Notes under the pieces: generated by a model | What the model saw: only the letters and a program-made list of their open reading frames with translations | Told to the model about the DNA's origin: nothing | Database searches by the model: none | Position numbers and translations under genes: made by a program | From: Callorhinchus milii | Taxonomy: Eukaryota | Length of the DNA: 64,000 nucleotides | NCBI RefSeq assembly: GCF_018977255.1 | Contig: NW_024704742.1 | Coordinates: 43,402,001 to 43,466,000, forward strand | Reading direction: 5' to 3' | Shown here: positions 41,245-43,381 of the stretch, piece by piece | Numbering within the stretch: the first letter of the stretch is position 1 | Layout of the letters: each line of letters starts with the position of its first letter

Positions 41245-43381
41245 CTAAACAATGTTGGTATGGGCCCCAACATAGACGCCCATATAGATGAGTCACTCAT
41301 TCAGAGACACGAACAAGGCCTAGCTAGGTCAGTTCAGAGAGCATTGGGCAGGGCATGATGGGACATGGTCACCAACTGCATCTTGGACTGTCTACTACCT
41401 TGGCATGGTACCAAACATCAACACCTACTCACATCTGCAAGACAAGAGTGTTTCAGAAGCTATACAATAGCCATTCAGCTCCACAATTACCAGATTGTAG
41501 TGTAAACGACTGTGCATAGAGCAATACTGAACTATTAAGAGTGCATTAACTGAATGTTGTTTGCATTTTCCTAATCTACTGAAAATGCGATGCCTAACCT
41601 TCAAAGATAGTTAGTGCTTGAAGTGTATGATGTTATGAACAGATGACTTGAATCTCATCCTTGCATACAGGTAAAATCCAAGGAAAACAAGGAAACAAGG
41701 GTGAGATTCTGCCCTGCCCAGCTGCTCTGAATCTGATTAATCTACATTATTGTACTGACACAGAGTTCAAGTCTGTTGTCTTGCTCAATAATAAACACTT
41801 GATCGACCCATTAATGGTTTTGGATAAGCATCACACAGCAAAACCATATTTCACTAATGAAATACAAACCACAAGTTACCTAAAATATCTGAATAGGTAA
41901 TGACCAATGCTTAAGTCATAGTGCACACAAAAGTAATGTTTCTTCCCACCCCAAACAAAATCTCAACATGGCCATCTTTTCATCTACCAAAGTACATTAA
42001 TCCTCTGTAACCCAATTACACAAACATATTAGTTTAGAAATTTAATCTTTCATCGTCTGTACTATCCAACAATGGTTTTGAAATAGTGCCTTTCCTGATT
42101 CTTGGGGACCAATATGGTTCTGAAGTTAATCCTCTATTATTGAAATCGCAAGCCTCGGCACAGAATTATTTTGGGCACAAACAACTAACATTGCAAGCCC
42201 AAAATGTTCAGAGAAATTCTTGCTTTGAAAGGCATCCATTTCCGTTCCAACAGGCAGTTTTCTGCTTCAACAGACCTAGTTCAATTACCGCTGCAACCAA
42301 ACGTAGCTATCCAGATGATAAAACTTGTTAACTTGCCAAATATTAACCTGCAGTAGTTTTCCCTGTACTTGTCTGGATTCTCAGAAATGTCAGATTGTAA
42401 ACTGATGTGCATTTGGGGATTTAAAAAAAAACCCAACATTTATCCTGCAGATCTGAAATATTTTTCGGAATCTAATAATGCTGAATAATCACAATTTTCA
42501 TTTGAGTACCATGCCTTCATTAGGATACCATTTTCTTTCTAGTTCAAAGTGAGCTGCTTAGAATGCATGGCTCAAAGATAGGAAGGATAAAGTGTTAAAG
42601 GGTCTAAAAAGTCATGACCTTCATCAAAACGGAAAAGGTTGCTTACTTTTGCTAAAATATTTTCTCCAGTACAAAAGTATTTCTGCAAGCTTTATTAAAG
42701 GGCCACTAAGGTAAAGCTAGAGGGAGTCCATTTTGCTTTGAAAGTTATAAAATAATTTGCCCAAAGCAAGAAACCTTTGCTCAGACACACTAATTAGGAC
42801 CCAATATGCATGAGGCTATCCAGCACTGTATTACAGTAAGTTTCATAGGGACAACAGCAGCTTTGGTTCAGCCAATAGGTCAAAGTAGAGTGAGCCAACC
42901 CCAGGAAATTCACTGGGTAATGTCATACACTCACTAGTACTAAATGTTCACTGCCAAGAGTGCTCCTGATCAACTCCCAGGCATCCAAACGCACCAATGT
43001 GCAACGCTCAGAGATGCTATCCTACGTGAAGGGTGCTATATAACTGCAAGCAAGCTGCTGCTGTCTTCACCCACTCCGCTAAAACTGAAATGACATGCTC
43101 AGCAACTCCATGTAGCATAAGTGAACAGTCCAGAGCAAAGTGGATCGCATGGTGTGTTTAAGCAAGGATTTCTTACTTCAGGATTTCAGAACCAGGTTAT
43201 TTTGCTTTTATTTCTTTGAGCAAAAAGCAAGTTGCTCAGAAATTTCGTTCCCCTTTAATACTCAATGTTTACCACTCAATACAGAATCAGTACTGCACCT
43301 TTTTTTGCATCTGCAAAGTAGAGCCTCAAATAGATCAACCCTACCAAGTCAGGCTTTTGACAATTTCACCCCTGCTATTAC

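Follow-up and report, generated by a model that had tools for sequence, protein, structure and literature searches.

The 64,000-nucleotide (nt) stretch of Callorhinchus milii DNA considered here, called the window below, corresponds to positions 43,402,001-43,466,000 on the forward strand of contig NW_024704742.1 (assembly GCF_018977255.1), and all coordinates are positions within it. It carries part of the gene for the splicing helicase DHX15 on the minus strand, on which all gene features described below lie. Searches by tblastn with two full-length DHX15 proteins located eight exons, which encode residues 416-795 and span 51244-31633. DHX15, known as Prp43 in other organisms, takes part in spliceosome disassembly, branch-site proofreading and ribosome biogenesis, and because of these roles in splicing and in ribosome biogenesis its dosage should matter. 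This article deals with the end of the intron at 41245-43381, just before the exon for residues 597-636, where an initial annotation had pointed out two short self-complementary stretches in the place of a polypyrimidine tract. As discussed below, this intron end is probably a dosage-control element for DHX15, and the self-complementary stretch is taken, with moderate confidence, to lie at the heart of a conserved cis-acting switch, of the detained-intron and nonsense-mediated decay (NMD) type, before that exon.

The intron is 2,137 nt long. The exon upstream of it (43382-43573) has 192 nt, encodes residues about 532-595 and ends in the donor CAG/GTAATA, as found by tblastn and a scripted check of frame and junctions. 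The exon downstream of it (41122-41244), found by tblastn and protein comparison, has 123 nt and is followed by a donor GT at 41121-41120, and its peptide is identical to residues 597-636 of human DHX15 at 40/40 positions. Since exons of 192 and 123 nt flank the intron in both genomes and the exon peptide is identical, the intron is orthologous to the human DHX15 intron that has been listed as detained. The productive acceptor, AG1, is at 41245-41246, in agreement with the scripted junction check. The first 8 nt of the exon (41237-41244) close with a second AG, AG2 (41238-41237); splicing to AG2 would remove 8 nt, shift the frame and lead to a stop after 8 codons, a scripted result which describes the potential of the sequence only. 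The probable branch-site region is at 41285-41293, where a motif scan points to the A of CTCAT (41289), which precedes the acceptor by 44 nt; there is no AG between 41296 and 41245, and CTCAT is the sole AG-free branch-site-like motif upstream. Pyrimidines make up 11/20 and U 5/20 of the positions from -23 to -4 (counted back from the exon), and the longest pyrimidine run from -40 to -4 is 3 nt, compared with 6-11 nt at the other seven DHX15 acceptors of the window, so that this acceptor is the poorest of the eight. The intron-end element has a single copy across the 991-Mb assembly. In addition, the exon of a DEAH-helicase paralogue in the same genome (L083 1440-1640, contig C7; 50% identity) has a matching acceptor with an ordinary long pyrimidine tract and without the guanine + cytosine (GC)-rich hairpin described below.

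The human and mouse counterparts of this intron have been tabulated by Boutz et al. (2015, PMC4281565). Table S2 of that paper lists a human DHX15 detained intron with the switch type 'Alt3'ss FS' and the NMD reference 'Hurt', and Data S3 gives a DHX15 coding exon of 123 nt after a 192-nt exon. In the same tables the acceptor of the DHX15 NMD isoform is 8 nt inside the exon, which leaves a 115-nt exon, the detained-intron isoform spans the intron, and the mouse list includes a Dhx15 intron. Going by these entries, the intron is spliced late and kept in the nucleus in both species, AG1 being the productive acceptor and AG2 the frameshifting one that gives an NMD substrate. According to the text of the paper, detained introns are more highly conserved than ordinary ones, their splice sites are weaker, and they often lie beside NMD switches in RNA-processing genes. 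The window agrees with the tabulated case (PMC4281565) in gene, intron and exon, in the 192- and 123-nt exons and in the second AG 8 nt inside the exon, with its frameshift and stop; it differs in that the tables hold no cis-element, no hairpin and no conservation past human and mouse, and in that the window is known from sequence alone. Full-text literature searches found no paper describing a cis-element, a hairpin or autoregulation of DHX15, nor how DHX15 dosage is set. DHX15 is not listed in the supplements of two surveys of unproductive splicing (PMC10123112 and PMC6547761), and the papers found to name DHX15 alongside RNA structure held passing citations or a reference to a G-quadruplex study only.

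An inverted-repeat search of the acceptor region returned exactly two perfect 7-nt pairings, the same two that the initial annotation had described. In helix 1 the 5' arm at 41278-41284 pairs with the 3' arm at 41259-41265, 12 nt apart; the 5' arm includes the motif UGGGC (41282-41278, at -38), which is the most widely conserved piece of the region. In helix 2 the 5' arm at 41267-41273, within the loop of helix 1, pairs with the 3' arm at 41252-41258, 8 nt apart. The two 3' arms abut, with 0 nt between 41259 and 41258, and the arms (41284-78, 41273-67, 41265-59, 41258-52) follow the order of an H-type RNA pseudoknot, that is, 5' arm 1, 5' arm 2, 3' arm 1, 3' arm 2. The interleaving and the zero-length third loop had both been noted correctly, as had the competition to be expected from them. 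The connecting loops of an H-type pseudoknot must be long enough to cross the helix grooves, so with no nucleotide to span stem 1 a full pseudoknot, or full coexistence of the two helices, is excluded. Two further palindromes reported a little upstream are also present. The window was compared with two fish-like metagenome contigs, L003 and L011. The palindrome at 41288-41300 is lacking in them; at the other, 41319-41328, these contigs keep the arms CCTA/TAGG around a 6-nt loop.

In calculated folds, helix 1 alone has -10.3 kcal/mol in the window, -10.4 in L003 and -8.1 in L011, and helix 2 alone has -8.7 (7 base pairs, bp), -6.3 (5 bp) and -6.3 (5 bp), respectively; the ensemble probability of helix 1 is 0.88, 0.12 and 0.00. 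Because the ensembles of the fish-like contigs pair helix 2 together with an upstream alternative and the ensemble of the window favours helix 1, the two helices are predicted to behave as competing hairpins. A GCTCCAT-like segment about 60-75 nt before the exon in L003 and L011 can also pair with the 5' arm of helix 1, which makes a three-way competition in the predicted folds; this segment is deleted or altered in the window. Interleaved perfect 7+7 pairings occur at 8 loci in the window (100 dinucleotide shuffles average 1.45), and compact ones (span <=33 nt) at 1 locus, which is the DHX15 acceptor (shuffles average 0.02). Interleaving alone is weak evidence, since real DNA shows the pattern fairly often; it is conservation that carries the case. 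The seven further interleaved loci, some with arms of up to 9 nt, include 14602-14653, 21834-21886, 2330-2388 and 57267-57304; the real sequence has about five times as many such loci as the shuffles.

Among vertebrates, DNA was compared with L003 and L011, and mammals and birds were compared through translated open reading frames (ORFs); the grouping of metagenome contigs as fish-like, invertebrate-like or plant-like rests on the similarity of their exons to named proteins. Alignment with the two fish-like contigs, identity counts and ORFs that translate the intron delimit a strongly conserved 3' intron block at 41245-41335, with patchier conservation on to about 41446. Between the window and L003, 54/62 of the last intron nt are identical, compared with 104/123 nt in the exon, 23/40 of its third codon positions and 34/68 aligned columns at the start of the next intron (first 62 nt). 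Relative to the fish-like contigs, the last ~60 nt of the intron are as conserved as the exon and far more conserved than synonymous sites. The intron also matches the traits of detained introns as a class in these counts (54/62 for the intron end vs 23/40 for third positions) and in having the weakest pyrimidine tract of the 8 acceptors.

A protein search with the 40-residue exon extended the comparison. Among its 120 best matches 76 are ORFs that run straight from the intron into the exon, and these are therefore translations of the intron ends of other species; through them the conserved block is seen in mammal-like as well as other vertebrate DNA. An identical 19-residue intron-derived peptide, ..IWAFVLGPYQPCLV, is found in 18/120 best matches, one of them from pangolin, and a second shared peptide of 14 letters in 14/120, with a variant in 1 more; the other best matches are 42 spliced proteins, 43 other read-through ORFs and 2 without the motif. 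In the clusters that share a peptide the upstream-intron parts are alike and the downstream-intron parts differ, and the longer ORFs have up to about 65 intron-derived codons in common between two vertebrate groups, conservation being patchier there. Querying with the P0045 peptide that derives from the intron added nothing to 13 clusters already known. The shared read-through peptides, together with the identity of 54/62 nt to L003, bear out the statement, made with the initial annotation, that a DHX15 intron holds a highly conserved element.

The two helices are not conserved alike among vertebrates. L003 keeps all pairs of helix 1, and in L011 one of them is G-U. Helix 2 has 5 bp in both contigs, which exceeds shuffles (P = 0.013 and 0.030), and the window differs from them by two substitutions, each of which adds one pair; one of these gives His in the window at a codon that is Pro in 14/15 non-mammal vertebrate-type ORFs and in L003. 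On the sequences compared, helix 2 is a predicted alternative hairpin of vertebrates only, and its 7-bp form, found in this genome only, appears private to this lineage. The intron also has a splice-acceptor-like CTTGTCTTGCAG followed by ATGTG (41430-41446, minus strand; AG 41436-41435), some 190 nt before the real acceptor. This site recurs in L003 and, in two vertebrate groups, in ORF peptides that derive from the intron; splicing to it would lead to an early stop (frame read by hand), and in the window GTGAGT starts 2 nt later.

Beyond vertebrates, 80 metagenome contigs that encode the exon were collected. An intron at the same codon position is present in 44 of them, 33 being unique, and the remainder are intron-less and read ..ML[ST]V-PQCF. 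Many invertebrate-like introns end in a shared layout, in which a strong CTAAY branch site is followed after about 12-14 nt by a GC-rich hairpin and then by a normal pyrimidine tract and the AG, and in many of these contigs the hairpin is a counterpart of helix 1, with the form UGGRC-loop-GYCCR. Examples are GGGCC/GGCCC, GGGTCC/GGGCCC, GGACC/GGTCC, TGGGC/GCCCG and ATGGC/GCCAT, with loops of 4-7 nt; across contigs the loops vary from 4 to 12 nt, some pairs are replaced by A-U or G-U, and one contig has a nested extra helix inside the hairpin loop. The hairpin ends 18-25 nt before the exon in invertebrate-like introns, 6 nt before it in L055 (ATGGC/GCCAT) and 14 nt before it in vertebrates. Helix 1 would be the form that an old, GC-rich stem-loop takes in this genome, with UGGRC on the 5' side, a mostly pyrimidine-rich loop of 4-12 nt and GYCCR on the 3' side, apparently placed between the branch site and the acceptor.

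The position of the motif and its complement can be put in numbers. TGGGC occurs within -50 to -20 in 16/33 unique introns, with a cluster at -35 to -41; in 500 shuffles the number averaged 1.8 and never exceeded 6. A strict complement of the 4-nt core follows downstream in 10/19 introns that have TGGRY at -33 to -52 (3.73 expected, P about 2.5e-4), and in 9/16 (3.57 expected, P about 0.001) when near-identical lineages are collapsed. The median minimum free energy at -60 to -6 is -12.95 for 20 target acceptors, compared with -6.45 for the 46 non-target DHX15 acceptors on these contigs (P = 0.0007). In addition, among the introns of PQ type AG2 is present in 14/15 with the motif compared with 4/14 without it (Fisher P = 0.0005). 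A loop-to-downstream helix of at least 5 bp, such as helix 2, is limited to the three vertebrate sequences and is absent in 10/10 non-vertebrate sequences tested, the best having 2-4 bp, as in shuffles. No Rfam family matched the locus at gathering score or at an expectation value (E) of up to 5. A likeness of the invertebrate hairpin to a small nuclear RNA (snRNA) stem-loop was dropped, as no snRNA model matched at E up to 5. Prokaryote genomes and viral contigs, scanned for stray copies of eukaryotic origin, yielded no match.

Plants show a partly similar arrangement, with a possibly homologous motif. Four unique plant-like contigs (L066, L074, L077 and L081) encode PNCFVRPREAQ.. and have their intron at this position; the L074 exon is 100% identical to DEAH2-type helicases of Populus, Salix, Ranunculus and Silene. 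All four have TGGGC at -35 to -37, right after a CTGAC branch site. Among plant read-through ORFs 22/36, counted by eye, keep an intron-derived block of the form [MV][GD]..C, in which [MV][GD] stands for (A/G)TGG(G/A); the block was seen in Populus and Hevea entries, and a Phaseolus entry keeps its later part only. In flowering-plant Prp43-type genes (DEAH2/3) the last ~60 nt of the intron at this codon position are conserved in many plants, in the order CTGAC, TGGGC or TGGAY, TCTGT and a pyrimidine tract, on the evidence of the four contigs and of proteins P0121-P0167. On these comparisons, conservation of the intron end reaches across vertebrates and, by the motifs recognized, partly into invertebrates and plants.

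Several results weigh against the view that a structured element of this kind controls DHX15 splicing. A 106-nt fold of the window's acceptor region has z = -1.23, and 22/200 shuffles are equally good; in the fish-like contigs the predicted ensemble prefers helix 2 plus the upstream alternative pairing over helix 1. For the target acceptors of the metagenome contigs, z-scores against dinucleotide shuffles are -0.57 compared with -0.09 for the controls (P = 0.055), and because they differ so weakly the excess stability is largely a matter of GC content, that is, of a GC-rich island. An alignment of 11 sequences has 74.4% of its cells paired compared with 71.2% in shuffles (50/500 reach it), and its covariation score, 0.170 compared with 0.155 (110/500 shuffles reach it), is not significant; conserved pairing is inseparable from two conserved motifs because the stem core hardly varies. 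A covariance model of the hairpin recovers its own seeds, one weak match at the correct place (L054, 13.7 bits) and two off-target matches in 221 kb, and so holds too little information for independent support. TGGRY at -33 to -52 is missing in 14/33 unique introns and TGGGC in 17/33; RNAalifold found no consensus pairs in five related hairpin-poor contigs (L060-L064), and a strict complement of the motif is present in 0/4 plant-like sequences. The association of motif and AG2 is confounded by GC content and relatedness, and the intron-less contigs use CAG in 20/30 cases. In the literature, the main text of Boutz et al. (PMC4281565) names DHX15 0 times. Taken with the positional evidence above, formation of the helix 1 hairpin is plausible, and the hairpin is positionally conserved and unproven by covariation.

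The conserved item might instead be a single-stranded protein site, UGGGC with a pyrimidine-rich stretch about 8-14 nt past the branch point, used by an RNA-binding splicing factor. An example would be a G-patch protein of the RBM5/RBM10 type, through which DHX15 is recruited, and the 3' arm would then be complementary only secondarily. This is rather unlikely in our judgement and still deserves weight. The G-patch of RBM5 activates DHX15. Such a site agrees with the plant-like introns, which keep the 5' motif at the same distance from the acceptor without a strict 3' complement, with the block start [MV][GD] kept in 22/36 intron-reading ORFs of angiosperms, with the non-significant covariation of the hairpin and with the usually CU-rich sequence after the motif. 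RBM5 carries a G-patch, and the ligand of its RRM1-ZnF1-RRM2 part given by Soni et al. (2023, PMC10349855), UGGCUCUUCUCU, is GG and then a pyrimidine-rich run, bound at 133 nM; the likeness of the DHX15 motif, a candidate site, to this ligand is short and judged by eye. The downstream enrichment of the strict complement in animal-like introns speaks against a purely single-stranded site, as do the loops of 4-12 nt between conserved complementary arms and the nested helix within one loop. A different model, that of the initial annotation, made the interleaved helices a pseudoknot-like switch in place of the pyrimidine tract, by which the acceptor would be directly sensitive to DHX15 helicase activity. 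Both helices are perfect in the window, both substitutions that set it apart from the fish-like contigs add a pair to helix 2, the 5-bp helix 2 of those contigs is above shuffles, and the three vertebrate sequences differ in whether helix 1 or helix 2 dominates the predicted ensemble, which is what competing hairpins would do. Moreover, a review (PMC11874996) presents models in which DHX15 and SUGP1 act on pre-mRNA at branch-site recognition, and for this reason a feedback of DHX15 through this position is conceivable. We hold this switch to be improbable nevertheless: the zero-length third loop rules out the full pseudoknot, helix 2 is absent in 10/10 non-vertebrate sequences, its 7-bp form is limited to this genome (Pro for His in 14/15 non-mammal vertebrate-type ORFs and L003), the vertebrate block is too invariant for a pairing test, and the literature searches found no link between DHX15 dosage and this intron. 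The interpretation given in the initial annotation is thus supported in part. The replacement of the pyrimidine tract holds in this genome (longest run 3 vs 6-11 nt) and fails in invertebrate-like introns, where the hairpin precedes a normal tract; helix 1 is kept in L003 and, with one G-U, in L011, and the 7-bp helix 2 is seen only here, with covariation not above shuffles among the 11 sequences; and a regulated intron agrees with the human and mouse detained intron and its frameshifting alternative acceptor (tables in PMC4281565), the two-helix unit as a conserved feature being unsupported, since helix 2 shrinks to 5 bp in fish-like contigs and is lost outside vertebrates. Helix 2 and the pseudoknot order, on which that model was centred, appear to be the least conserved part of the region.

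The conservation could also serve an overlapping function, either an upstream alternative acceptor or poison segment in the conserved ~200 nt or a regulatory element at the level of DNA, with the hairpin incidental, to which we give a small probability. It would explain why conservation extends well past the hairpin, up to about 65 shared intron-derived codons in two vertebrate groups, and it could draw on the acceptor-like CTTGCAG followed by ATGTG (AG 41436-41435), which L003 and the ORF peptides share and whose use would give an early stop. For DHX15, though, the tables of Boutz et al. (PMC4281565) list nothing besides the detained intron and the acceptor at +8, and the piece that invertebrates share is the hairpin region and not the upstream block. 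The G-U pairs, moreover, argue for an RNA of the sense strand, because they form only in sense RNA. Chance complementarity in neutral intron sequence, finally, is very improbable. The eight interleaved 7+7 loci of the window and the unremarkable fold z-score would allow it; it is already contradicted by a block that stands above synonymous-site conservation across vertebrates and by a core motif that is kept in position in unrelated eukaryotes.

An ultraconserved element is a stretch of 200 nt or more that is identical among human, mouse and rat. Ultraconserved or highly conserved elements reportedly lie at the poison exons of SR proteins, as Lareau and Ni are said to have described in 2007, and an ultraconserved element of ARGLU1 is said to lie at a site of unproductive splicing. 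The DHX15 intron end is like these elements of splicing factors in belonging to an RNA-processing gene, in the conservation of intron and exon flank above the synonymous level, in the NMD isoform and in the retained or detained intron, and its role is likewise presumed to be homeostatic. Unlike them, mostly cassette poison exons, the DHX15 switch is a pair of tandem acceptors 8 nt apart, and its core motif can be traced outside vertebrates, the 5' half to plants. Base pairing inside introns, close to splice sites whose pyrimidine tract is weak, has also been described in two other settings, one of them linked to unproductive splicing, namely the AC/GT repeats that bridge whole introns in Lin et al. 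(2016, 'RNA structure replaces the need for U2AF2', PMC4691745) and the long-range pairs between complementary regions of BRD2/BRD3 (PMC10789245); as these papers present them, both differ from the local hairpin of 4-7 bp between branch site and acceptor in DHX15. Compared with an H-type pseudoknot, DHX15 shares the order of the arms and departs from it in that the helices must compete and that the second one is not kept outside vertebrates.

Elsewhere in the window, no DHX15 exons for residues 1-415 were detected in 51245-64000, the 12.8 kb that precede the most upstream exon located, so that this part must contain at least one large intron, or the 5' exons fall outside the window. Long ORFs within neighbouring introns matched no Pfam family. 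Two matches to a tRNA model, at 26024-26095 and 62942-63013 (both minus strand; 58.6 and 41.5 bits), are possibly genes or tRNA-derived repeats, the first downstream of DHX15 and the second in a large upstream intron or the upstream region. An ORF at 26772-27239 on the plus strand, downstream of the DHX15 3' end, has a weak DCAF16-like Pfam match of 19.8 bits (below the cut-off of 27), and GC-rich stretches at 1-6000 and 16001-20000 (0.50-0.59, compared with 0.35-0.45 elsewhere) may be CpG islands or other genes.

If the intron end is the regulatory switch favoured here, the structured and pyrimidine-poor gap between the branch point and the tandem AGs would slow and tune recognition of the 3' splice site. 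This tuning would set the shares of pre-mRNA that are detained, spliced at AG1 or sent to AG2 and decay, and the balance of the three outcomes would keep the dosage of DHX15 steady. Formation of the hairpin in vivo, its causation of detention or of the choice of AG, and the factor which senses it are steps that we infer. A more far-reaching version, which is speculative and unlikely, would see an ancient RNA device in animals, with its 5' half in flowering plants, placed just past the branch point of a single DHX15/Prp43 intron, by which the cell gauges the activity of this helicase. The UGGGC hairpin would be contacted by DHX15 itself or by an adaptor with a G-patch; when activity is too high, splicing of the intron would be aborted, delayed or moved to the +8 acceptor, and the resulting feedback loop would be older than bilaterians. 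At the level of the intron itself, a human detained intron and NMD switch, which had been tabulated but not discussed, is now tied to a compact cis-element that is conserved far beyond mammals. Its small size makes the element a convenient object for mutagenesis, for structure probing and for crosslinking and immunoprecipitation (CLIP), and it may be an instance of regulation at an intron end that is older than the vertebrates.

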